From a virus (taxonomy: Duplodnaviria > Caudoviricetes): a stretch of DNA of 60,068 bases. Shown here one piece after another: positions 3,485 to 51,298 of this stretch (the stretch's first letter is position 1; the number at the start of each line of letters is the position of its first letter). The DNA is taken from IMG/VR virus record IMGVR_UViG_3300009509_000023, positions 1 through 60,068 of that record; one strand, 5' to 3'. Under the pieces are notes generated by a model. That model was not told where the DNA came from. It saw only the letters and a list, made by a program, of their open reading frames with translations, and searched no databases. Both the position numbers and the translations under genes were made by a program.

Positions 3485-3930
3485 TGCCAGCAAGACAAAC
3501 GCCAGTACTGGTCAAGCATTGCGCCCTCGCTATTTACAAGAGCGGGTGGTGTACGGGATCGAAGGTGGAGCGAGTACAGCAAGCGTTGGACATCGCTGTG
3601 CACCGTCTGATCGAGTACAAATTTTTGTGGAAGAACGCCGGGAAGGTCGCCCCGGAAAAGATAAAACTCACAGCGAAGGGGCAGAAGGCTGAAGCTCGCC
3701 ATCGAAGGGAGAAGAACGCGAAGATCAAAACAGATGCGTGGAATGCGCTCTACAAGTTGATTCAGGAAGAGGCAGAAGAGGACGACGGTTCAGGAGGCAC
3801 GTCTCAAGAGGCCGGCGATGTCGGAGAGCCCGCGAAAGGCTCGAAGCAGAAGAAGCGCCGCCGGTTGGCGCACTCGGCCAGGCGTCGGCCAAAGAGGGCG
3901 AAGCGTGTAAAGCGTGCCAAGAGAGGGTGA
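3484..3930 (+). CDS. Hypothetical basic protein
   Basis: Translationally coupled (TAATG) to dnaB; K/R-rich C-terminus; no recognisable family. Confidence 0.65.
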   Translation: MPARQTPVLVKHCALAIYKSGWCTGSKVERVQQALDIAVHRLIEYKFLWKNAGKVAPEKIKLTAKGQKAEARHRREKNAKIKTDAWNALYKLIQEEAEEDDGSGGTSQEAGDVGEPAKGSKQKKRRRLAHSARRRPKRAKRVKRAKRG

Positions 3931-3931
3931 G

Positions 3932-39487: not shown

Positions 39488-42025
39488 ATGGCTGAGATTT
39501 TATCTCCCGGCATATTCATCGAAGAGGTGCCGAGCGCGGTACAGGTGGTTCAGCCTGTTTCCACATCGAACATGGGGATCATCGGCGCGACTCAGAGGGG
39601 CCCGACGGACGAGGCGACTCTGGTCACGTCTTTCGCCCAGTTCACCCGCATTTTTGGTGAGCTGATCGCGGACTCGTGGACCGGCCTCTCCATGGCCGCG
39701 TATTTCGCGAACGGTGGAAGGCGGGCCTACGTGGTTCGCGTCATGCCGGGCGACGCCTCAGAGGCGGACGGCAGAGTCACAAGCGCGCGATACGACTTCA
39801 CGTGCTTCACCGGAAACGCAGTCAAGGTCACCATCACGGACACAGACGCGTCCGGCGTCGTGTTGGCGGATTTCCCCGTGTATGCCCTGTCGGGTACGGC
39901 TGGAGTGACGTGGAGATGGCGCGCTGACGACACGCCCGTGACGACTGAAAACTTGTATGAGAGAGACGGCGTGACCGCTCTCGTCCAGGACACTGTCGGT
40001 CACGTGAATCACCACTACGAGGGCCGAGTCATCACGTCGATGCCGAGCGATGGCGTGGATTCAGCGCTTCCGAGCATCATGCCCGGAGGCACGATCACGC
40101 TGAACTGGGATCCGACCGGCAGTTCTCCACTCACGATGACGCTGACTCAGGTCGGGACGACTCTTCGAGCTGCCGGAACGACTGTGCAGAATTCGGAAGC
40201 GGTGCTCGATCTCGTGACGGGGTATCTGTCCATCACGTTTGCCGGAACCGATGTTCCTGTGGTCGGCGGCGATGGAACCAACATCACGCTCGACTACACA
40301 CCGGGAACGGACGTGTACTCGGTGTCGGACGATGGAACAGGGGCCATTCCCGCGGATGGAACGATTCTGGCGGGTGCTGGAACCGTCACCTACGCGACGG
40401 GCGCGTATTCGTTCACGGTCAACGCCGGGTACGAGCCGGGAACAGACTGCCCTGTCGTGGTCGACTACGATGTGCAGGCGTGGGACCTCGATCCAATCTC
40501 CGTCGGAACGTGGGCGAATAACATGAAGCTGGAGGTCATCGGAAACGACGACTACTACACGGTGGCTACGGACACCTATTCCCGCTTCAATGTCAATGTT
40601 CGACTACTCAACTCTTCGACGAGCCTCTACGACATCATCGAGACCTACGAGGAGATTACCTTCACTGACTCAACGTCGGCGCAGTACTTCCCGGATGTTC
40701 TCAACGACCTGTCGGACTTGGTCAACGTCGTAGAGCCGGCGCTCAACGAGGAAGGACCGCAACACCTCAATGGGCGAGCGCGAAGCCTCGTTATGGCTGG
40801 TGGAGATGAGCTGGCCTCGAATCGTCAAATCACGACCACCCTTCTCGACCTTCCGATCTCTCCGAGGTCTTTCAGCATCTCGTGGACAGATGACACGGGA
40901 ACAGCGAGAAGCATCACAGACGACGGCGCCGGCAATCTCATCGGCGACGTTGACGGTGCTGGCAACAACACCCTCAGCTACACCACGGGCGCTCTCGATG
41001 TGTTGCTGTCGAACGCCATCGGGCAGGACCAGCTCGTCACGGCCGACTACCGTAGCGTTTCCGAGGAGGACAACCACCTCGACATCTTTGCCAACGGCAC
41101 TGACGGCACGTTCGATGCTACCAACTACGGTCGGAACCAGTTCACGGCGATTACCCTCGAGCCGAACTTCCAAGGCCTATACGCCTTGAACAAGATCGAG
41201 GAGCTGATGCAAGTCGTCATTCCGGACTTCGCTGGAGACATCCAGATCACGAAGGACTTGATGGACTACGTGGACAGTCGAGAGGTACTGCCTTCGGGCG
41301 GCGATCGTTTCGCCATCCTCATGACTCCGCAGGGTTCGACGGCGCAAGAAGCGGTGGACTTCCTTCGACTCGACGTTCTTCAAAACACGAAGTTTGCGGC
41401 GATGTACTGGCCGTGGGTGAAGGTCGCGAACCCGCTGGCCGACAACAGACCGATCGTGTTCCCTCCGTTGGGGCACATCGCTGGCATCTACGCGCGCACG
41501 GACTCCACGAGGAACGTGGGCAAGGTTCCGGCGGGCACCGTTGACGGCGCGCTTCGTTTCCTGGTTGGATTGGAGTTCGACGCAATCAGCCAGGGAGAGC
41601 GCGATATCGTCTATCCGGCGAGGATCAACCCCCTCGTGTCGGGGACGCAGACCGGCCTCGCTGTCTGGGGTGCGCGAACAACCTCTCTTCAGAGCGAGTG
41701 GCGCTACATCAACGCGCGCCGTTTGTTCATGTTCGTCGAGAAGAGCGTTTACAACTCGACACACTGGATCGCCTTCGAGAACAACGGGGCGGACTTGTGG
41801 GCGAGGATCAAGGCCCAGCTGCAGGGCTTCTTGACGAACCTCTTCAACGACGGGCTGTTTGCGGGAACGACTCCGGCGCAAGCTTTCTTCGTGACCGTGG
41901 ACGAATCGAACAACGACCAGGCGTCGGTCGACGCCGGCCAGGTCATCATCGACGTGGGCATTGCACCGAACAAGCCGGCCGAGTTCGTGAGATTCAGGTT
42001 CCAGCAGAAGACGCTGGATTCCTAG
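39488..42025 (+). CDS. Contractile tail sheath protein
   Basis: LSPGIFIEE, YFANGG, AAMYWPW, PPLGHIAG, VWGART, WRYINARR, FENN, IAPNKPAEFV. Confidence 0.95.
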   Translation: MAEILSPGIFIEEVPSAVQVVQPVSTSNMGIIGATQRGPTDEATLVTSFAQFTRIFGELIADSWTGLSMAAYFANGGRRAYVVRVMPGDASEADGRVTSARYDFTCFTGNAVKVTITDTDASGVVLADFPVYALSGTAGVTWRWRADDTPVTTENLYERDGVTALVQDTVGHVNHHYEGRVITSMPSDGVDSALPSIMPGGTITLNWDPTGSSPLTMTLTQVGTTLRAAGTTVQNSEAVLDLVTGYLSITFAGTDVPVVGGDGTNITLDYTPGTDVYSVSDDGTGAIPADGTILAGAGTVTYATGAYSFTVNAGYEPGTDCPVVVDYDVQAWDLDPISVGTWANNMKLEVIGNDDYYTVATDTYSRFNVNVRLLNSSTSLYDIIETYEEITFTDSTSAQYFPDVLNDLSDLVNVVEPALNEEGPQHLNGRARSLVMAGGDELASNRQITTTLLDLPISPRSFSISWTDDTGTARSITDDGAGNLIGDVDGAGNNTLSYTTGALDVLLSNAIGQDQLVTADYRSVSEEDNHLDIFANGTDGTFDATNYGRNQFTAITLEPNFQGLYALNKIEELMQVVIPDFAGDIQITKDLMDYVDSREVLPSGGDRFAILMTPQGSTAQEAVDFLRLDVLQNTKFAAMYWPWVKVANPLADNRPIVFPPLGHIAGIYARTDSTRNVGKVPAGTVDGALRFLVGLEFDAISQGERDIVYPARINPLVSGTQTGLAVWGARTTSLQSEWRYINARRLFMFVEKSVYNSTHWIAFENNGADLWARIKAQLQGFLTNLFNDGLFAGTTPAQAFFVTVDESNNDQASVDAGQVIIDVGIAPNKPAEFVRFRFQQKTLDS

Positions 42026-42087
42026 GAAGTAGAAAACACTCGATTCCTAATGGGTCGGGATAGCGAGTAGCAGTACAGGAGGCAACT

Positions 42088-42435
42088 ATGTTGGTAACGT
42101 TCACAAACGCATCGTCGGATGACGTTTTCGTCAGCCTGCTCTACAAGAACTTGGCACCCGGTGGCGCGGTTACCGTGTCCAAGTCTCGGTCCGAGCTGGA
42201 CCAGGAGCAGGAGCTGAAGAAGCTCGTTCAGGCGGGAACCGTCGTCCTTTCGTTCGCCACTGAGGACGGCGATAACGCGCAGCTCGGCACCGAGCCGTGG
42301 CCCGCGTTCACGGACTTGACACGGCCCTTGGCCACAGCGTGGCCGGTTTTCGGAGCGATCTGGAACACTGACGACAACGCGCTCAACTGGACCGATGGGA
42401 CGAACTGGCGCGATGCAACAGGGGCTATCACCTGA
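42088..42435 (+). CDS. Probable virion structural protein
   Basis: Strong RBS; between sheath and tube; C-terminal WTDGTNWRDATG. Confidence 0.6.
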   Translation: MLVTFTNASSDDVFVSLLYKNLAPGGAVTVSKSRSELDQEQELKKLVQAGTVVLSFATEDGDNAQLGTEPWPAFTDLTRPLATAWPVFGAIWNTDDNALNWTDGTNWRDATGAIT

Positions 42436-42500
42436 TAGATCGGCAAACTCGCTAGACCGATCCAATGGTGATGTTGTACTTTTGAGGTAGGAGGCTGTAA

Positions 42501-43052
42501 ATGGCACGGCCAGTAGCAGAAGACTTTCTTCACTCAATGCGGTTCCACGTGCAAGTCATCGACGGGACATCCCCGTCAGGTGAGCGTTTGGGGCCTCCAG
42601 AGGCTGGATTCTCGATGTGCTCGGTTCCAGAAGCCACGGTTGAGGCCGTGGAGTACAAAGAGGGAACCTACATCTACACCCGGAAGCAACCGGGAAACAC
42701 CACCTTCTCCGACATTTCGATGTCTCGTGGGGTGGCGATCACGGATACGGCTTTCTGGATGTGGATCAAGACGGTCATCGAGGGTTCTGGGGAGTATCGC
42801 GAGGATATTCGCATCAAGCACTATCATCGCGAAGAAGCGCTCGTGGGAAGCGGTGATGTCGGAAAGAACTTGACGGCGATTCCGACGGGCGGGGAGACGA
42901 AAGCGGCGAGGGTATACGAGGTCTTCAACGCGTTTCCGGCTCGCCATAAGGTGGCTGGCGACCTCGATGCGACGGCGTCTGAAATCTCCATCATGGAGCT
43001 GGACCTGTCTTACGAGTACTTCAACCTGATAATCAACGCCTCTACTGCCTAG
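42501..43052 (+). CDS. Tail tube protein (gp19-like)
   Basis: AGFSMCS.PE, VEYKEG, KQPG, ISMSRG, NAFP, DLDA, ELDLSYE. Confidence 0.9.
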   Translation: MARPVAEDFLHSMRFHVQVIDGTSPSGERLGPPEAGFSMCSVPEATVEAVEYKEGTYIYTRKQPGNTTFSDISMSRGVAITDTAFWMWIKTVIEGSGEYREDIRIKHYHREEALVGSGDVGKNLTAIPTGGETKAARVYEVFNAFPARHKVAGDLDATASEISIMELDLSYEYFNLIINASTA

Positions 43053-43073
43053 AGGCGTGGTTGATTATGGAGA

Positions 43074-43104
43074 GGGCCGCATGCCTGCGGTGTGCGGCCT
43101 TTTT
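43074..43104 (+). terminator. Rho-independent terminator
   Basis: GGGCCGCATGC-CTGCG-GTGTGCGGCCT followed by TTTT. Confidence 0.75.
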
Positions 43105-43136
43105 CACGATGAGCGTTACCTAAGAGTTGGTGTAAG

Positions 43137-43163
43137 ATGACTCGATCGGCGATTACGGACTAC
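43137..43163 (+). pseudogene. Orphaned original 5' end (MTRSAITDY) of the second tube gene
   Basis: ATG ACT CGA TCG GCG ATT ACG GAC TAC encodes the same nine residues as 44009-44035. Confidence 0.8.
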
Positions 43164-43195
43164 GCCTCGAACAAAATTTGCAGTAGACTCGTGGT

Positions 43196-44008
43196 ATGCC
43201 GTTTCAAAAAGGTAATGTCCCGAAGAACAGAATTGACATACCTATCGAGGAGCGAGAGTTGATTTCGAGTCTATACAGTCAAGGGTATAAGATTCGAGAC
43301 CTGTCTACTCGAACAGGCTTGTCTGTGACGTGGTTGTCCGATCATCTGCGAGCGTGGGGTGTGCAAAGAGACCCTGACGCTGTTCGTAGACGACGAAATC
43401 GTGCTGGGAGTTCGGTAGGGGCGGATACCTCTTTTCTGAAATCTTGGACTCCAGAGAGTGCGTGGGTTTGGGGTTTATGGTTTGGAGATGGGTGGGTTCA
43501 GCGCTATCGAGTATCGATGGCAGCGAGCGAAGAAGTCGCTCGGAAGGTGCAGAGGATTTCGGGAGCATCGAGCGCTTTGAATCCTGGGAATGGATGCGTG
43601 CACTTCGATCTTGGTGGAACGGACGCTGTTCTTCTTGTGGAGGATATGTTTGGTTTGCGTCCGGGTCCTAAGTCAGAAGTTTTATCATGGCCTGACGTAC
43701 CCTCGAATGTAGAGTCTCATTTTCTTCGGGGGCTATGGGACTCGGATGGGTCGTTTTACGTGCAGCTTTCAAAAGGTCGCCCTTATCTTGGAACGACGTT
43801 CTGCTCCAAGTCGGCTGCGCTTGTACTAGGAGTCCAGGATGCCGTGAAGAGGCTCGGCGAACAAAGCAGACCGGTTGAACGGAATCGAGGACTGTATCTC
43901 ATACGATGGAACGGTAGGTACGCGAAGAACCTGGGGGCGCTTCTTTATGCTGATAGTGAGGACCCAATGCGTTGCTCTCGGAAGCATGCTATTTGGGAGG
44001 AGGCGTAA
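43196..44008 (+). mobile_element. Free-standing LAGLIDADG homing endonuclease with N-terminal HTH
   Basis: AWVWGLWFGDG and HFLRGLWDSDGS motifs; no Hint domain; flanked by duplicated gene starts. Confidence 0.85.
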
Positions 44009-44791
44009 TTGACAAGGTCTGCGATCACGGATTACCTCCAGAACTATCCGTTTTGGTTGATGGACATCGCTCCAATTGAGCCTCTAGCTCAGCCGCTCTT
44101 CACACCGCTTCTCGGATTTTCCTCCATATCGGCGCCGGAGCTGACGATCGAGATCACGGACATCACAGAAGCAAACTGGTTTTTCAAGCGTAAGGTGGTT
44201 CGTGGCGGCGACGTGAGCAACATGACGTTTGTCAGAGCTTCGAAGTGGTACGACAGCGACTTTTACCGCTGGGCTTTGTCCGCGCTGATGGGGAACACAG
44301 GAGGGCACGGAGGCTCCCGCTCGATGGCTCTTGGAGGAGCTACGCCGAGACGCGACCTTCTTCTCATTCACTTCTTGTCTCGGAGCCCCCTTCCACCGAT
44401 AGGGACTAACGTGGCAGCGATCTCCGGAACACTGGCCATTCAAGGGACCGCTACAGGCCTCGTAGGGGGCGTGTCGAGTCTGGCTAGTCGAGGCTACCTA
44501 GAACACGCTACCGCGATCACAGGGGCCGGTGCGGCGGCAGCAACAGGCGCGCATATGGGGCCCTTCGAGTTCATCCCCAGACTGCCTGCGAAGGCTTGGG
44601 TTCTCTACGGCTGCATTCCGACGCGATACAAGACTGGAGGAGATTTCGACGCCACGGACGCTTCCATATCGCTACAAGAGTTGGAAGTGGCTCTCGAGGG
44701 GTGGGACGAGCTGACGCTGGGGAGCGATGCTGCGCCACAAGCCCTAGGGTTTGCCATTGCGGACGCGGCCCGAACTGGAACTACGAGGTAA
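44009..44791 (+). CDS. Second tail tube-like protein (gp19 paralog, possible tube initiator)
   Basis: GFSSISAPE, CIPTRYK..DFDA..ISLQELE; TTG start with RBS GGAGGAGG. Confidence 0.8.
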   Translation: MTRSAITDYLQNYPFWLMDIAPIEPLAQPLFTPLLGFSSISAPELTIEITDITEANWFFKRKVVRGGDVSNMTFVRASKWYDSDFYRWALSALMGNTGGHGGSRSMALGGATPRRDLLLIHFLSRSPLPPIGTNVAAISGTLAIQGTATGLVGGVSSLASRGYLEHATAITGAGAAAATGAHMGPFEFIPRLPAKAWVLYGCIPTRYKTGGDFDATDASISLQELEVALEGWDELTLGSDAAPQALGFAIADAARTGTTR

Positions 44792-44794
44792 GCC

Positions 44795-44971
44795 ATGAGC
44801 AGCGACTGGGAGACGCTCGATACTGAGAAGGTGATTCGCCGAAACCGCGAGCAGCACGAGCAGACAACCTCTGGTGGGGTCGGCGGGTATGAAGTTCCGC
44901 TCGGACAGCCATTGCGTCCGCCGATTCCTCCACGCAAGCCCGTAGACAAGAAACCCAAGAAGAAGAAGTGA
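44795..44971 (+). CDS. 58-aa protein with Pro/Lys-rich tail (below the ORF-track cutoff)
   Basis: RBS GAGGT; MSSDWETL...TTSGGVGGYEVPLG...KKPKKKK. Confidence 0.55.
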   Translation: MSSDWETLDTEKVIRRNREQHEQTTSGGVGGYEVPLGQPLRPPIPPRKPVDKKPKKKK

Positions 44972-45056
44972 AGTATTAGAGGCCGCTTTCCGCGGAGACG
45001 GATCAGAGCGATTGGCTTTACATCAAATATGCAGTAAAAGATCATGAGGAGCGAAC

Positions 45057-45620
45057 ATGGACGAAGTTCTGAAGTCAACCCCGAAGGACAGGCAGGAAAC
45101 ATGGGCCACGCGGGTGTGGGAGGCGTGCGGAGGAAGATGTTCAAACTGCGGGTCAACAGAACGGCTCGAGGTGCGGATGATCGTTCCGAAGGAATCGGGA
45201 GGTCAGGAGGTGGTCAGCAACGGCACGCTCCTGTGTAGAACGTGCGAATTGGCTCGGGAGCTGAGCCACAAGCCGGCGGTCTCTGGTGAGAGGACGCGGC
45301 CCATCAACTTTTTCGTCAGCAAAACCCTCCACGAGAAGCTGAAAAATGGGCTCGCGTCGGACTACGGGTTCAAGAGCGTGTCGGCGCTCGTGCGTTTTTT
45401 GATGACGAAGTTTGTCACTCACCCGAGCAGGTTCGACGATCTCGCGATGTACCAGGAAAGCGGATCGGACGTGAAGGTCAACGTTTGGGTCGACCGAGAG
45501 ATGTATGATCGCTTCAAGGCGATCACCGATCGGGACGGCGTGACTGTGACGGATACGCTGAAAGGGCTCATACGCATGTACGAGTCAGAGGCGAAGAGGA
45601 TTGTAGGAAGGACGAGATAA
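45057..45620 (+). CDS. Degenerate HNH Zn-finger fused to two ribbon-helix-helix domains; probable regulator
   Basis: CSNC..LEVRMIVP..GG..N..LC..C lacks the His residues; INFFVS..LHEKLK..SVSALVR and VNVWVD..YDRFK..TVTDTLK. Confidence 0.7.
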   Translation: MDEVLKSTPKDRQETWATRVWEACGGRCSNCGSTERLEVRMIVPKESGGQEVVSNGTLLCRTCELARELSHKPAVSGERTRPINFFVSKTLHEKLKNGLASDYGFKSVSALVRFLMTKFVTHPSRFDDLAMYQESGSDVKVNVWVDREMYDRFKAITDRDGVTVTDTLKGLIRMYESEAKRIVGRTR

Positions 45621-46462
45621 TGAGCGAAGAACATCTGCGGGATGAACTAGCGAAGGGGGCCCCGGTTGGAGGGGCTATCGAGCACATTCACACTGTCAAT
45701 CAGATGGAGACCCCGAAATCGGCGACTGGCGTATTCGAGCTGCCGTGCGGGTATCTCGACCCACAGACACAGGAGCTGGTCACCGAGGTCGAGGTCCGAG
45801 AGATAACGGGTTACGAAGAAGATATGCTCGCATCGGACAACGTTCCGTCGGAGCAGAAAGTGTCGAATCTGATCAGCGGTTGTGTGGTACGCATCGGCGA
45901 AGAGACTCACAAAGGTCGAATTGCCGGGATGCTGCAGAACTTCATGATGGGTGACAGAGTTTTCCTCGTATTCGCGATCCGCCGTGTGACGCTCGGGGAC
46001 GAACTTCCAGTCCGAGAACGCTGTCCCGACTGCAAAACCACCACGCTGTTCATGGTGGACCTCGAAGAAGAGCTTCAACCGAGGGAAATGCCGGACCCGA
46101 GGAAGCGGGTATTCGATGTGCAGCTGCCCTCTGGTTTGTCTGCCCGATTTCGGGTATCGACTGCTGCAGACGAGGTGAATATGGCAAAACTCCGTCGGAG
46201 GCAGAAGCAAAAGTCGGATGTGCTGTCTCAATCGATACTTATGCGATTGGAGCTACTTGGGGATGAAAAGCCCACGCTGAAGATGGTAAAGTCTTTGGGT
46301 ATGAGAGATCGACACTTTCTGCGCGACAAATTCCGAGAGGTGGAAGGCGGGGTGGACACGACGTTGCAGCTGTCTTGCCCTTCGTGCGGAAACGAGTGGG
46401 AGAAGGATCTAGACCTGAGTTCATCGAGTTTTTTCTCCCCTGGGGCTCCGCAGAAGCCCTAG
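45620..46462 (+). CDS. Tail assembly chaperone / hub-assembly protein (gp26-like, Zn-binding)
   Basis: ELPCG, GDRVFL, CPDC, VQLPSG, GVD, CPSC; upstream of the tape measure gene. Confidence 0.75.
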   Translation: MSEEHLRDELAKGAPVGGAIEHIHTVNQMETPKSATGVFELPCGYLDPQTQELVTEVEVREITGYEEDMLASDNVPSEQKVSNLISGCVVRIGEETHKGRIAGMLQNFMMGDRVFLVFAIRRVTLGDELPVRERCPDCKTTTLFMVDLEEELQPREMPDPRKRVFDVQLPSGLSARFRVSTAADEVNMAKLRRRQKQKSDVLSQSILMRLELLGDEKPTLKMVKSLGMRDRHFLRDKFREVEGGVDTTLQLSCPSCGNEWEKDLDLSSSSFFSPGAPQKP

Positions 46463-46644
46463 AGAAGGAAATATTCTACTTGATGGAGTCGTGGAACGGT
46501 CTCCCCTATGAGTCGATCATGATGATTCCGGTCACCCGGCGTCATCGACTGATGCTCCAAAAGAGCAATTTGGAGCGTCGGAGGCAGCAGAACCAGGACG
46601 CTGCCATGGCTCGTGCGAGAGCGCGCTCTAGGCGTCGACGGTAG
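46429..46644 (+). other. -1 frameshift site (T TTT TTC) and C-terminal extension of the tail chaperone (G-T type)
   Basis: In-phase heptamer 46429-46435; hairpin GGGCT/AGCCC 46443-46459; -1 frame reads EKEIFYLM...IMMIPVTRR to 46644. Confidence 0.8.
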
Positions 46645-46652
46645 GAGAGACT

Positions 46653-46664
46653 ATGGGCCTCAAC
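46653..46664 (+). pseudogene. Orphaned original 5' end (MGLN) of the tape measure gene
   Basis: AGGAG RBS then ATG GGC CTC AAC, against ATG GGT TTG AAT at 47405. Confidence 0.65.
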
Positions 46665-46670
46665 TGGATA

Positions 46671-47369
46671 CTACTTCTGGCTACGGTATTTTCCTCGGGA
46701 CCAGTTCAACACGGTAACGTCGGAAACTCCAAACTCCTCGGCCAGGATTCGGCTACTCTCTCCGGATTTGTGCCTGTTGATGATCTCTCGGACAGTATTG
46801 TCGTCGATTCGGGCGAGCACGTCGTCTCGTGTCTGACTGTAGGTTTTAGACGGGGTGATTGGGCCTTCGGCGTGCTTCCAGGTTTTTCCAGTGCAAACAG
46901 ACGAGATACACGCCTGAGTAACTCCGTATTCTTCAGCGAGCGCTGTGAGCTTCTCTCCAGATGCTCTGCGTTGGCGAATATTGACAACGTCTTCAGCGCA
47001 GAGCTTCTCTCCAGAACGACGCCGTCCGAGAACTCTGAAGGCATGAAGGGTGTTTTCTCTCACGGTTACAGCTTCAAGATTTTCCAGACGATTATCGTCT
47101 CGCACACCGTTGAGGTGGTTTATTACATATCCTTTTGGAATCGGACCACGAAAGGCCTCCCACATAAGTCTATGTACTCGCCGCGCTATAGCATGGCCGC
47201 CTGGACGAGACAGGCCGACTTGCGCATAGCCGTCCCGGCAGTATCCGAGTTTGAGGAGTCTCCCTGCTTTGGTGCGAGTTACCGATGTGAGCCGGCGTAC
47301 TCGACCTCGACTCGATATTTCATAGGCCTCCGGAAGTTCTACCACTGGTTTCCATGTCTCTTTAGTCAT
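46671..47369 (-). mobile_element. Free-standing NUMOD4-HNH homing endonuclease with two C-terminal HTHs
   Basis: WKPV...YEISSRGRVR (NUMOD4), VHRLMWEAF.GPIP...INHLNG.RDDNRLENLE...EN; the only credible minus-strand gene in the window. Confidence 0.9.
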
Positions 47370-47404
47370 GAGCCCAGTGTATCACGAAACAGAAAGGGAT
47401 GCAC

Positions 47405-50400
47405 ATGGGTTTGAATTTTTTAGGACTTGGATTTTCGTTCGGCGCTAAAGATGTCGGACTGGAGTCAGCCCTCGCTGGTTTGAATAACCAATTCAAGCAA
47501 CTCGATGACTCCGTTACGAGCTTCAAAGATGCTTCTTCCGGAGCTTTCTCCCCAGCAGAAGAGGCCATCGAGGGCATAAAAGACCAAGTAGCGGATCTGC
47601 TCGATGTTGGGTTGGACAATCTGTCATTTGACGACGTGGCTGTCGATTCTTCTGACGTGGTTGCGGCGAAGGACGCAGTCGAAGGGCTCGGAAGTTCCAC
47701 CGAGACGGGCGCTACCGAGTTCGGTCGTATGGCGAACAGTGTTCTTGGTGGATCTGGGAAAATAACAGGAGCACTTGGATGGATTGGTTTGGCCATCGGT
47801 CCTGTCATTGGCGGGTTTGGGCAGGCTGCCGAATCGGCTGGAGGGATGATCGATACGCTTGCCGGTATTCCAGGAAGAATAGGTGGAACGATCCACCGTT
47901 TGGCGAACGACGGCATAAATCTTACGAACAGTCTCGAGGGTGAAGCCGTTGGTATGGCGCAGACTGCTCGGCAGGTCGGCGTCAACATGGGTTACGTTGG
48001 ACAGGATTTGAACCGCTTTATAGGCCAGGCGACTGGAATGGCTATGGGCCTCAACATCGGAGCCGATGATGCTGCGAAAGCCATTCGTGGCTGGGATGAG
48101 GCGGCGGAAACGCTCGGAGCCACTGGTATCACGAGCGCGCGAAATCTGGCTCAGCTCACAGCCGGTTTGGGCATTGAAGCTGACGTGCTTCGTAACACCA
48201 CTCTCGAGATGCGCAACTTGGGCGCGTCCGATGACCAGATTCGTCTCATAACTTCTTCATTGGCGGCGATGGGTCAGCAGACCGGAGATGTGGCAGGGGC
48301 TCTAAACCAGCTTCCAGACGTGATCCAGATGTTGGAGCGCCGTAGGGCTCTGGGGGACACTCCCGAGCAAATGGCCGCATTTGCGGCGGATACGGCTGCC
48401 GCGGCGCGGGGATTGTTCGCCTTCACCCAGGACTCCGAGCGCGCGCGAGCTATGGCTCAGCAGTTAGCGGGTACTGTGACAGAGAGTCGCGAGGCCTTCC
48501 AGAACATGTTTGCCGGGGCGGAAGACCAGTTGCCTCAGTTGGTGAGCGAGCTATCGGTTGTTTCTGGGGATGTAGATGCGGCTTTTGAGCATATGGCTGG
48601 AGGCCCCGGTCAACTTATCGAGGGAATGGGCCAACTTGTTCAGCTGACACGCGCACGAGGTGGCAATGTAGGTCAGGTGTTGGAGTTTATGCGCGGACGG
48701 CTCCAGCAGGTTTTTGGCAATGATATGACTGCCACGCTGGTCAATTTCTGGGATCGGATGGACGATAGCACGCTGGCATCTATGGCGAATATTAGAGGTG
48801 CTTCTGTCGACCTCGGAGAGCTGGGAGCGGCAGCTCATTCGACAGGGCGGACGCTGGATGAAGTTTTCGAGCGTATGAGAGCTGGGTTCCAGACGGCCTT
48901 CCGCCGAATCGCAAGGCCCGCGGTTCGAGACTTTGTGCGAGATACTGGGGGAGCGCTTCGGACCCTCCAGCGCCGTATGAATGAGGCGAGAGACGACACA
49001 GGAGCGCTCGGGACGGTCATGGAAACCCTTTCGCTGTCTTCGCAGATCGGCGGTCTGGCTCTAATGCCGCGAGAACTTCGTTCCACGACGATCGCGGCTG
49101 ATGAACTTCAGGGTATGGTGACGCCTCTTATCCAATCCTTCACAACGTGGGGAGGACTGGTCGAGACGGTCGGCTCATATGTTGCCCTCTTCGCTACCGA
49201 GGTCATTCTGGCCAAAGAAGCCGGGATGAGTTGGGGAGCTGCGATCGACAAAGTGGCTGACAAGTTCGCGGGCATATTTGTGAAAATGATCGGAAAAGCC
49301 GAGACATTTCTCACCGACTTTGCAAATAGGTTTGCGACGTTTGATTGGAACACTCTGTTTGGAGGGGCGGAAGAAGGAGCAGGCGAAGAGGGGCCGCTAG
49401 GTCGAATATTCAGAAAACTTGAAAGCGTGGACTGGGGCGGCATTTGGGCGAACATCCGAAAGGGTTTCGAGAACCTCTTCAAATTGATGGAGCCGTGGCT
49501 CACTCAGAAGATGGAGACGTTCAAAACGGTGGTGTGGGAACGTCTTGGGAGGTGGTGGAGCGAGATCGACTGGATGGGCATATTGGGAACCATGGGGGAC
49601 CTGGCAGGGGCCCTGTGGACTGCCGTGCAGCCGGCATTCAGCGAGCTGGGAGACATGATTGGTCAGTGGTTATCTGACCATTGGATCGACATCGTTCTAA
49701 TCTCAAGCGCGGCTCTGGTCGGGGCGTTTGTCGCTCTTGTGCTCGCGGCTATCGGTGCTGCGGTGGCGATTCTTTTGGCTCCTGTTGGCGCCGCTTTCCT
49801 GTTCTGGTCGGAAGCGTGGGAGCGCTGGGGAGACGATATCATCGCCTACTTCGAAGGGCTCGGCGAAGACATAGCCGAAATCTGGCAATTCATAGTGAAT
49901 GAGGTTGGCGATCTTCTTCGGGACTTTGGGGTGTGGATCGAGGAGACGTGGCAAGGTGTTGTCGACTTCTTCACAGGCGCGTGGGACGGCGTTGTCGGCT
50001 TTTTCGAGGGCATAGGCGAGGGTATTCAGGGCACGATTCAGGGGGTCGTAGATTGGCTCTCCGACACGTGGAACGGGTTTATACAGTGGTTCGTAGGCAG
50101 GTTTCCGGAGACATCCCAAGCGGTAGCAGAAGCCGCGGCGAATTGGAGGCGTCGGTTTGAGTCGATTCGAGACTTTGCCATTCGGGCGTGGGACGCAATC
50201 AAGGGGTACATCTCTTCAGCTGTCGACTGGATAACCACAAGGTTCCAATCCCTTGTAGAAGGTGTTTCCAACACATGGATGCAGGTCGGGGCGGCCATCT
50301 CGACGGCGTTGGAGTGGATCAGCGCGAACATCATTCAGCCTTATATCGACAACCTGTCGAGGATTTGGTCTGTGGTGTCAGAGACCGCGTCGACTGCGTG

Positions 50401-51298
50401 GGAATGGATAGAGGGGATCGGGGAGACCATTCAGGAAAACTTAGTCGATGTGGCGACTGTGCTTCAAGACGCGTGGTCGGGGATCGTGACCTTCTTCCAG
50501 GACATATTTGCGAGACTTGGAGAAGCGCTCGCCCCGGTTAGTAGGCTGTTCGGTTCGATTGGGGAGTCGGGCGTGCAGGCGCTCGACTCTATCATGGCGA
50601 CGGCTGTCCGCCTGTTCGGAGGATCGATCAACACCGTGGTTGGCGAGGACATGGCTTCGACCGAAGAAGTCATGACTCAGGCGGCGAACAACGTGTCCGA
50701 GACTATGCAGACCGTTCTATACGAAGCGACTGTGAGTGCCATCGTTGACGGATTTTCAGAGGGCTTCGCTCAAGTAGTCGAGAACATGGGAGAGTTTACC
50801 GACAGCATGGTCGAGGCATTTTCGACTCTGAACGATCGGATTCTGGAAATAACGTCTGACCTGTTCGGGGCAGTGATTTCTCAAGCCGAGATCACGATGA
50901 TCGCTTCCGAGACCGCTGTCGAGGGGATCATTGGACGACTGCGCACCATTACTCAGGCCCAGGCGGCGCTTGCTTCAGCGAGGACTGAGGCCATCGAATC
51001 GTTGTCTAGACCCGCCGACGAAGATGCGATGCGCCGTAGGTTGGCGCAGTTGGCGGGCAATGAAGTTCTTCAGGCTATTCACCATCCTGACTGGTATAGC
51101 GGATTTGGCAGCGTAGAAGGATACAGAACGCTGTTCATACAACACATGAATGCTCTGAAGAACGCTATTGAGGCGCTCGGGACTGCGCCTGCGACCGGAG
51201 CGATGGAGGAGCGCCGTCGAATTATCAGAGAGGCTGCCGAAGCAGTTCGTCGAGGTCCGGGGGGTCAGCCGCGAGTTCCGGGTGGAGCAGGGAGGTAA
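47405..51298 (+). CDS. Tape measure protein
   Basis: About 1297 aa, Ala/Gly-rich and helical; W/F repeats with about 11-residue spacing; hydrophobic segment; position after the chaperone. Confidence 0.88.
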   Translation: MGLNFLGLGFSFGAKDVGLESALAGLNNQFKQLDDSVTSFKDASSGAFSPAEEAIEGIKDQVADLLDVGLDNLSFDDVAVDSSDVVAAKDAVEGLGSSTETGATEFGRMANSVLGGSGKITGALGWIGLAIGPVIGGFGQAAESAGGMIDTLAGIPGRIGGTIHRLANDGINLTNSLEGEAVGMAQTARQVGVNMGYVGQDLNRFIGQATGMAMGLNIGADDAAKAIRGWDEAAETLGATGITSARNLAQLTAGLGIEADVLRNTTLEMRNLGASDDQIRLITSSLAAMGQQTGDVAGALNQLPDVIQMLERRRALGDTPEQMAAFAADTAAAARGLFAFTQDSERARAMAQQLAGTVTESREAFQNMFAGAEDQLPQLVSELSVVSGDVDAAFEHMAGGPGQLIEGMGQLVQLTRARGGNVGQVLEFMRGRLQQVFGNDMTATLVNFWDRMDDSTLASMANIRGASVDLGELGAAAHSTGRTLDEVFERMRAGFQTAFRRIARPAVRDFVRDTGGALRTLQRRMNEARDDTGALGTVMETLSLSSQIGGLALMPRELRSTTIAADELQGMVTPLIQSFTTWGGLVETVGSYVALFATEVILAKEAGMSWGAAIDKVADKFAGIFVKMIGKAETFLTDFANRFATFDWNTLFGGAEEGAGEEGPLGRIFRKLESVDWGGIWANIRKGFENLFKLMEPWLTQKMETFKTVVWERLGRWWSEIDWMGILGTMGDLAGALWTAVQPAFSELGDMIGQWLSDHWIDIVLISSAALVGAFVALVLAAIGAAVAILLAPVGAAFLFWSEAWERWGDDIIAYFEGLGEDIAEIWQFIVNEVGDLLRDFGVWIEETWQGVVDFFTGAWDGVVGFFEGIGEGIQGTIQGVVDWLSDTWNGFIQWFVGRFPETSQAVAEAAANWRRRFESIRDFAIRAWDAIKGYISSAVDWITTRFQSLVEGVSNTWMQVGAAISTALEWISANIIQPYIDNLSRIWSVVSETASTAWEWIEGIGETIQENLVDVATVLQDAWSGIVTFFQDIFARLGEALAPVSRLFGSIGESGVQALDSIMATAVRLFGGSINTVVGEDMASTEEVMTQAANNVSETMQTVLYEATVSAIVDGFSEGFAQVVENMGEFTDSMVEAFSTLNDRILEITSDLFGAVISQAEITMIASETAVEGIIGRLRTITQAQAALASARTEAIESLSRPADEDAMRRRLAQLAGNEVLQAIHHPDWYSGFGSVEGYRTLFIQHMNALKNAIEALGTAPATGAMEERRRIIREAAEAVRRGPGGQPRVPGGAGR

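Follow-up and report, generated by a model that had tools for sequence, protein, structure and literature searches.

A free-standing LAGLIDADG homing endonuclease gene between two synonymously different copies of a phage tail-tube gene start

Introduction

Free-standing homing endonuclease genes of the T4 type (Seg, Mob; 'intronless homing') have start and stop codons of their own, lie between conserved genes and spread by break repair, and their filled alleles are protected by differences in the target sequence (PMC2988022). They are found in intergenic positions or split a gene into two polypeptides, as do mobE in nrdA, mobA in gene 60 and seg in gene 43 (PMC2988022). Here, a LAGLIDADG homing endonuclease gene that likewise has its own start and stop codons and lies between conserved genes was analysed in the IMG/VR virus record IMGVR_UViG_3300009509_000023 (Duplodnaviria; Caudoviricetes); the whole stretch of 60,068 nt (positions 1 to 60,068 of the record) is referred to as the window. 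Unlike the T4-type genes, this insert is located inside a reading frame, that of a second tail-tube-like gene (tube-2), and the displaced gene terminus is supplied again by the inserted cassette. The accessible text of the T4 review contains no mention of duplication (term 'duplicat'; PMC2988022).

Two other groups of natural elements were compared. In Aeromonas phage Aeh1, mobE likewise sits in a phage coding sequence (nrdA, 'genes in pieces') with no intron or intein, and the gene is functional; both Aeh1 fragments are translated and reassemble, whereas in the window the nine-codon upstream fragment is discarded and replaced by a duplicate. In fungal mitochondria, elements enter protein genes with a homologous copy of the displaced end (Allomyces atp6, Ophiostoma rps3, Phlebia cox2), and both C-terminal duplicates and an 'N-terminal duplication' (Tremella) are described (PMC4019555, PMC7315562); an initial annotation of the window had rightly pointed to such fungal endonucleases with replacement gene segments. 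At the tube-2 locus, too, an endonuclease gene lies inside a coding gene and a homologous copy of the displaced terminus restores the open reading frame (ORF). The fungal cases are organellar, most are of the 3'-end type or tied to introns, and their fragments are longer. In the phage cases the duplicates span 5-9 codons, the new start and ribosome-binding site (RBS) are placed at the 3' end of the nuclease gene, and three structural genes and two nuclease families share the layout.

Engineered home-and-rescue and cleave-and-rescue drives combine a nuclease aimed at an essential gene with a recoded, uncuttable rescue copy (PMC7968924, PMC6442612). These drives are synthetic and RNA-guided; the natural replacement copy may be their parallel, with a putative immunity. 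Terminal duplicates in phages were not encountered in the literature searched (subscription papers and supplements lay outside the coverage), and none are described in the accessible text of a pangenome paper or of the Cluster J, ICP1 nuclease and CB7 papers; the initial annotation, which knew of no 5'-replacement form in phage tail genes, was in this respect in line with the literature. The locus is read here, with a probability of about 0.72, as an 872-nt mobile cassette (43164-44035) that carries a replacement gene start and thereby rescues tube-2 without splicing.

Results

Gene start duplication and empty alleles

Coordinates of all features are collected in Table 1. The upstream copy of the tube-2 start (the relic) reads ATG ACT CGA TCG GCG ATT ACG GAC TAC and translates to MTRSAITDY; the downstream (replacement) copy reads TTG ACA AGG TCT GCG ATC ACG GAT TAC and translates to (M)TRSAITDY. 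The two 27-nt copies are mismatched at 7 of 27 nt, one of these being the first base of the start codon and the other six, all synonymous, being spread over five codons; the longest uninterrupted identity is 5 nt. The TAA stop of the nuclease (44006-44008) abuts the TTG at 44009, so that non-coding space amounts to 0 nt on the 3' side and to 32 nt on the 5' side. The coordinates and differences given for the duplicate MTRSAITDY in the initial annotation were all borne out by the sequence, as was the new RBS that it had placed in the last endonuclease codons (GGGAGGAGG, 5 nt before the TTG).

The background of such repeats was assessed in the 60-kb window in six frames, at spacings of 300-3000 nt. 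Isolated 6-residue peptide repeats numbered 31, and three consecutive hits (8 residues plus the start) were reached only by the 43137/44009 pair. The remaining 6-residue repeats (e.g. 12744/14013) are inside ordinary ORFs and were judged to have arisen by chance. The surroundings of the duplicate, with a sheath gene and a tape-measure gene in a virus record, are not an organellar context.

Homologues of the tube-2 protein were found in seven viral contigs (39-69% identity) and in L050, a 183-kb contig of a Phycisphaerae metagenome-assembled genome (MAG; 33% identity). Residues Q11, P14, F15, W16 and D19 of the tube-2 protein are invariant in 8/8 relatives. All the viral contigs (L001-L007) are free of the LAGLIDADG nuclease, and together with L050 they provide six non-redundant empty alleles (L001, L002/3, L004, L005/6, L007, L050), in which the start, its codons and the following (L/M)Q-x-(Y/F)PFW are unbroken. 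Related phages with an uninterrupted gene had been predicted by the initial annotation. The order in L001-L006 is as follows: tube-1 stop, hairpin and T run, TTACCTAAGAGTTG, start, eight or nine codons, then LQNYPFWLMD. L007 and L050 are likewise uninterrupted, but their upstream sequence differs.

The window shares the hairpin, the TTACCTAAGAGTTG motif and the start at 43137 with the empty relatives, and foreign sequence begins after nine codons. The upstream copy is therefore the native gene start, cut off from its gene. Its codons (CGA TCG ... GAC) are also nearer to those of the empty alleles than are the codons of the downstream copy (AGG TCT ... GAT). The TTACCTAAGAGTTG motif is probably the native translation-initiation region: the window contains one exact copy, and three more sites with three mismatches correspond to the chance level. 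Since the motif is not repeated in the window, a role as general promoter was rejected.

Searches of deposited phages gave no match, neither by DNA similarity with the 42400-45000 segment nor by tblastn with the tube-2 protein. L050 is the sole cellular-genome relative of the tube-2 gene, and its presence in a Phycisphaerae MAG is a weak hint at Planctomycetota as the host group.

Properties of the nuclease

The nuclease is encoded by its own ORF, outside any intron or intein (free-standing type). The LAGLIDADG_3 match covers residues 173-245 (E 2.2e-11) and the first half of the protein falls below the threshold (E 0.2). Two LAGLIDADG motifs are present in one chain, GLWFGDGW (93-100) and GLWDSDGS (179-186); their core residues, including the acidic residues that close each motif (D98 and D184), are invariant in 10/10 homologues, and judged by these residues the nuclease looks intact. 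Helix-turn-helix matches in the N-terminal 60 residues are weak. The GC content at third codon positions (GC3) is 0.48 in this gene and 0.61-0.78 in the neighbouring structural genes; the GC3 profile along tube-2 revealed no clear co-conversion tract.

Eleven homologues of the nuclease were present in the protein collection, the closest one (P0002, encoded on an 83-kb contig) being 76% identical. Alignment-based scans with the nuclease yielded 19 metagenome and 22 viral loci, reduced to 28 non-redundant loci with the window included. A scan of viral contigs with the single nuclease missed all relatives, the six peptide patterns all being different in the closest homologue; the alignment scans recovered L028-L049. 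A scan of genome contigs with the nuclease alignment gave no match.

Related cassettes in distant lineages

Nucleases 34-36% identical to that of the window were found between tube-1 and tube-2 homologues in three other lineages (L009/L010, L012/L028 and L029). Upstream of each nuclease lies a relic with a native-looking start and 8-9 codons (MAQRRFLDI in L009/L010 and L012/L028, VARPRLLDM in L029), and directly after the nuclease stop a replacement copy (VAQRRFLDM, VANRRFLDM, LARARLLDM) runs into MQ-x-(Y/F)PFW. The insertion point is common to all four lineages, 3 nt (one codon) before the invariant Gln-11 codon, so that four filled and six empty non-redundant tube-2 alleles were available at one position. 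From the nuclease stop to the new GTG or TTG start there are 0 nt in the window, 1 nt in L012, 3 nt in L029 and an 8-nt overlap in L009; a purine-rich stretch in the last nuclease codons was seen in the window and L012. The relic is in frame with the nuclease via a 33-nt linker in L009/L010/L012.

Three other lineages repeat the layout of relic, nuclease and replacement start at the same codon, and the replacement 5' end therefore belongs to the element; to judge from these alignments, the linker, the nuclease, the new RBS and the replacement 5' end form a heritable cassette. The boundaries were compared between L012 and L009. The host flanks are 69% identical in tube-1 and 73% in the next 98 nt of tube-2; the relics are identical at 20/27 positions, with all six differing codons synonymous; in the cassette, the linker and the nuclease are each 82% identical and the replacement copy is identical at 24/27 positions. 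Overall, identity is 82-89% across the cassette and 69-74% across the flanks. These values, from a single lineage pair and short segments, would assign the relic to the host and the replacement copy to the cassette; they also hint at a cassette transfer after the L012 and L009 hosts diverged. Arginine codon 3 is AGR in 4/4 replacement copies and CGN in 8/10 native or relic copies, which fits a common descent of the cassette's copy.

In L029, an additional 91-aa ORF (2697-2972) with no Pfam match lies between relic and nuclease and is joined in frame to the relic start. In L011, a nuclease homologue follows tube-1 on a contig that breaks off within the nuclease gene, and a sequence ending in IPFW may be a decayed relic.

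Table 1. Positions of the features described in the text (window coordinates, except in the last two rows)
Feature	Position	Strand	Basis or remark
Relic: native start and first nine codons of the second tube gene, severed from the gene	43137..43163	+	Position and context match the uninterrupted start in L001-L007 and L050
ORF of 41 codons begun by the relic start	43137..43262	+	Overlaps the nuclease start in another frame
Linker of 32 nt, 5' end of the inserted cassette	43164..43195	+	Homologous 33-nt linker is 82% identical in L012 vs L009
LAGLIDADG homing endonuclease gene, 270 aa, N-terminal helix-turn-helix-like region	43196..44008	+	Pfam LAGLIDADG_3, E 2.2e-11
Shine-Dalgarno-like GGGAGGAGG within the last nuclease codons	43995..44003	+	5 nt before the TTG; predicted from sequence
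Replacement 5' end: TTG start and eight codons, cassette-borne	44009..44035	+	L012/L009 counterpart 24/27 identical vs 20/27 for the relic
Second tail-tube-like gene, 260 aa, invaded host gene	44009..44791	+	Pfam Phage_T4_gp19, E 2.6e-8
Conserved motif TTACCTAAGAGTTG, just 5' of the native start	43116..43129	+	Precedes the start in L001-L006
Terminator-like hairpin and T run between the two tube genes	43085..43097	+	Consensus scan; relatives have a comparable hairpin with a T run
First tail-tube gene, 183 aa, upstream neighbour	42501..43052	+	Pfam Phage_T4_gp19, E 5.6e-24; PHROG tail tube protein
Segment deleted in a population variant: 644 nt, in frame, nuclease codons 1-203	43160..43803	+	Contigs in runs X11 and X15
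Relic of the tape-measure start, 13 nt, ATGGGCCTCAACT	46653..46665	+	Just after the upstream gene's stop; aligns with the uninterrupted start in L001, L004 and L005/6
HNH_3/NUMOD4 homing endonuclease gene, 232 aa	46671..47369	-	Pfam HNH_3, E 1e-19; NUMOD4, E 8e-12
Replacement start of the tape-measure gene, ATGGGTTTGAATT	47405..47417	+	Listed ORF 47399-51298
3'-end duplicate in L033	2941-2970 and 3966-3995		Nine codons and stop
3'-end duplicate in L038	2412-2429 and 3335-3352		Five codons and stop

Second nuclease and family survey

The same layout was found in the window with an unrelated nuclease: an HNH_3 endonuclease gene lies in the start of the tape-measure gene, flanked by 13-nt copies that differ at 6/13 nt. 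This nuclease is present in L002, L003 and L007 and absent from L001, L004, L005 and L006. In the empty L001, L004 and L005/6 the sequence GTG-G(G/C)x-TTG-AAY-TTC-ATG-GG... is uninterrupted, and in the filled L002/3 (nuclease 74% identical) and L007 (34%) a 13-nt duplicate occurs at the identical point, which amounts to three filled and three empty non-redundant alleles. All filled alleles encode NF-L-G and all empty ones NF-M-G; this difference is a candidate mark of immunity or of co-conversion. Both nuclease genes of the window (43196-44008 and 46671-47369) have a GC3 near 0.5.

Duplicates were also found with other LAGLIDADG homologues, as follows. In L017/L035 the homologue is in the tape-measure start, with MGYGFS.. 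upstream and MGLGFSFGAED downstream; a 'GSFGAE' match in L017 does not share the frame of the neighbouring gene and was put down to chance. In L033/L034 a capsid-like gene has its last nine codons and stop repeated behind the nuclease (7/9 codons synonymously different, no amino-acid change). In L038, the upstream gene has its last five codons and stop repeated as a fusion to the nuclease C-terminus, with synonymous differences only. The relic is always on the far side of the nuclease relative to the gene body, in both the 5'-end and the 3'-end cases. An automatic duplicate test flagged 7/28 loci, compared with 27/704 mismatched pairs and 138/2800 shuffles. Secure cases, with long runs, are the window, L012, L009, L029 and L033; L017 and L038 are probable.

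In L013, L016, L017/L035, L030, L031 and L032, LAGLIDADG homologues are found ahead of the tape-measure gene, which begins just after the nuclease stop. Upon inspection, no clear relic was seen in L013 and L030-L032, where the tape-measure start codon is ambiguous. The conserved NF(L/M)GLGFSFG tape-measure start seems to be a preferred insertion site of two nuclease families, and in this group of phages the starts of both the tape-measure and the tube genes look like insertion hot spots.

Variants in metagenomes

The locus region was found in 20 sequencing runs from seven studies (sediment, estuary, mangrove, soil), none of which is recorded as RNA. In two of the four runs examined (X11 and X15, from two studies), contigs join 43159 to 43804 via a 2-nt microhomology; the 27-nt repeat was not used for this junction. 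The product consists of MTRSAITD followed by the last 67 nuclease residues, its stop still abuts the TTG, and the allele carries single-nucleotide polymorphisms at 44035 and 44038, in the region of the replacement copy. Pieces of the full-length nuclease occur in runs X11 and X14.

The 644-nt deletion is nuclease decay, which is expected from the homing cycle. Relatives with the duplicated start and no endonuclease had been named by the initial annotation as an observation that would speak against it. The deletion allele comes close to this, but 205 nt of the nuclease remain and it is therefore a decayed derivative, not a counter-example. The kept reading frame would agree with translational coupling, but one deletion in three would preserve it by accident.

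Divergence between the copies

Codons were tallied over ten copy pairs, leaving out the start and stop codons and five junction codons: 22 are identical, 32 synonymously different and 4 non-synonymous, the pairs L012/L009 and window/L002 not being independent. The 32:4 ratio would be expected if a native and an element-linked functional allele were each under ordinary purifying selection. Since an unconstrained relic should gain mostly non-synonymous changes, the relics would appear either to have been functional gene starts until recently or to be constrained. The parsimonious reading of the tally is a divergence of two functional alleles, each held by purifying selection: a native allele, of which the relic is a sample taken when homing last occurred, and an allele linked to the cassette. 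Purposeful recoding is weakened by this reading without being excluded by it. Of the interpretation offered by the initial annotation, the unspliced insertion into a conserved tail gene with a new 5' end was supported by the recurrence and the empty relatives; the proposed selection of the recoding for escape or against loss of the element does not follow from the 32:4 ratio.

Discussion

Proposed mechanism

The cassette comprises a short linker, a free-standing LAGLIDADG gene, a predicted RBS in its last codons and a nine-codon replacement start with TTG. The nuclease would cut uninterrupted alleles at or near the boundary of codons 9 and 10, and repair of the break would copy the cassette from a filled genome. 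LAGLIDADG endonucleases have sites of about 22 bp and leave a 4-nt overhang. They usually cut at the binding site (PMC8393795). After insertion, tube-2 would be translated from the new start and so stay functional, probably with initiation linked to the end of translation of the upstream ORF; splicing would be unneeded. The relic would be the recipient's own gene start, kept at each homing event or first made by one-sided homologous repair, and the replacement copy would travel with the nuclease. The differences between the copies would reflect the divergence of two functional alleles that are no longer able to recombine, and some of the synonymous differences probably render the filled allele uncuttable. 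The sequences themselves show the architecture, its recurrence and the filled and empty alleles; from this arrangement we infer the cleavage site, the cut position, the immunity of filled alleles, the use of the TTG and translational coupling.

Such an element may have originated from a nuclease gene just outside a gene but cutting a few codons inside it, in a recipient with no homology on the far side. One-sided repair would then leave the recipient's terminus beyond the nuclease, which would produce both the 5' and the 3' layouts as seen and predicts that the end of the relic marks the cut. Once formed, the relic and the upstream DNA would serve as a second homology arm for ordinary homing.

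Several observations weigh against the cassette as described. The precise empty allele (43163 joined to 44036) was not found in the contigs of four runs, which cannot show its absence, and an exact 27-nt relic had no match in viral contigs. Ala5-Ile6 is common to both copies of the window and missing in the relatives, though the N-terminus varies, which implies either spread among close relatives or co-adaptation. The relic ORF of the window is out of frame with the nuclease (32-nt linker), so that a shared expression logic is not conserved. The boundaries were compared on 27-nt stretches from a single pair of lineages, and a slower evolution of the nuclease relative to the tube genes may be all that lies behind the result. 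By the criteria used, 21/28 non-redundant loci are without a flanking duplicate, single hits of the duplicate test arise by chance in about 4-5% of controls, and the L017 and L038 duplicates are short and less secure. Finally, the target site, the cut position and the immunity of filled alleles are features that we infer.

Alternative explanations

A cassette of the same composition may have acquired its synonymous changes under positive selection, which would have made the rescued gene uncuttable and destroyed the direct-repeat homology against precise excision. Deliberate recoding for nuclease escape or against excision is plausible: identity runs are at most 5 nt in the window and L033 (5-9 nt in the other pairs), 60-78% of the codons are synonymously different with no amino-acid change in the window, L012, L033 and L038, AGR is used by the replacement copies of all four filled tube-2 lineages where native copies mostly have CGN, and the sole deletion allele seen used a 2-nt microhomology instead of the 27-nt repeat. 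However, two functional alleles that evolve separately under ordinary purifying selection would yield the 32:4 ratio as well, stretches of 7-9 identical nt persist in L009, L029 and L002, and the shared AGR codon is explicable by common ancestry of the cassette; positive selection was considered unlikely as the source of the changes. The insert could also be old and no longer mobile, with the native start setting the level of tube-2 through the relic ORF and the nuclease by termination-reinitiation. Stop and new start abut or overlap in all four lineages, the relic is in frame with the nuclease in L009/L010/L012, the native start of the deletion allele reads through in frame to the stop at 44006-44008, and the relics are nearly free of non-synonymous decay, as such a regulatory role would have it. 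It is nevertheless very improbable, given that relatives are polymorphic for the insert, that the catalytic residues of the nuclease are conserved, that the low GC3 suggests a foreign gene, that an in-frame deletion happens by accident once in three times and that the relic ORF of the window, which stops at 43262, is not in the nuclease frame.

A spliced or bypassed element (group I/II intron, intein or translational bypass), with 43137 as the real start, would account for the perfect frame and the native initiation context retained by the upstream copy. A group I/II intron was rejected on the Rfam scan of 42000-48000, which at E up to 1 gave 0 matches and no ribozyme core; just 32 nt (5' side) and 0 nt (3' side) of the insert are non-coding. 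An intein was rejected as well: in the Pfam scan, LAGLIDADG_3 was the sole domain of the insert and no Hint domain was found, the nuclease has its own TAA stop, and the relic frame is closed at 43262. These scans agree with the initial annotation, which had seen no room for a ribozyme and no Hint domain. The stability of the RNA folds at either junction did not stand out from that of shuffled sequences (z -0.69 and -0.46), and a bypass would have to span 872 nt; this whole class of elements is hardly credible. A transposon with target-site duplication was likewise discarded: Pfam detected no transposase domain, the repeats differ at 7/27 and 6/13 nt, and the replacement copy varies together with the nuclease. 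Chance resemblance or an assembly artefact is excluded in practice. The repeat is short, and nothing else favours an artefact; no other 8-residue repeat of this kind occurs in the window, relatives have their gene start at the orthologous position, contigs from 20 runs and seven studies hold the region, and the same layout is present in independent assemblies of other phages. The architecture of the rescue cassette is well supported, the adaptive reading of the recoding less so.

Implications

A homing endonuclease gene would be able to occupy a conserved phage structural coding sequence with neither intron nor intein by supplying the few displaced codons again, together with a new start and RBS. 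If the cassette operates in this way, the end of the relic should indicate the cleavage site, the synonymous differences would be candidate immunity determinants, and the element would be a natural counterpart of the engineered rescue drives. A bolder version, which is less likely than not, is a natural 'home-and-rescue' strategy in at least two phage nuclease families, in which invariant essential codons near gene termini are targeted (faulty repair being lethal), a positively selected, synonymously recoded rescue terminus with a start or stop of its own confers immunity and prevents precise excision, and the native start is co-opted for translation into the cassette and for the coupled rescue. 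For annotation, short relic ORFs, non-ATG starts that abut nuclease stops and structural genes with apparent 5' or 3' truncations may be signatures of such cassettes.

Additional observations

In L007, a tRNA-Thr (TGT) gene (3856-3931) is located directly 5' of tube-2, where the other relatives have the first tube gene. The tail module of the window also contains a gene at 45057-45620 encoding an HNH motif and a ParG-like ribbon-helix-helix tail; it is conserved in all seven relatives (50-76% identity) and therefore has the distribution of a core gene rather than that of a mobile nuclease.

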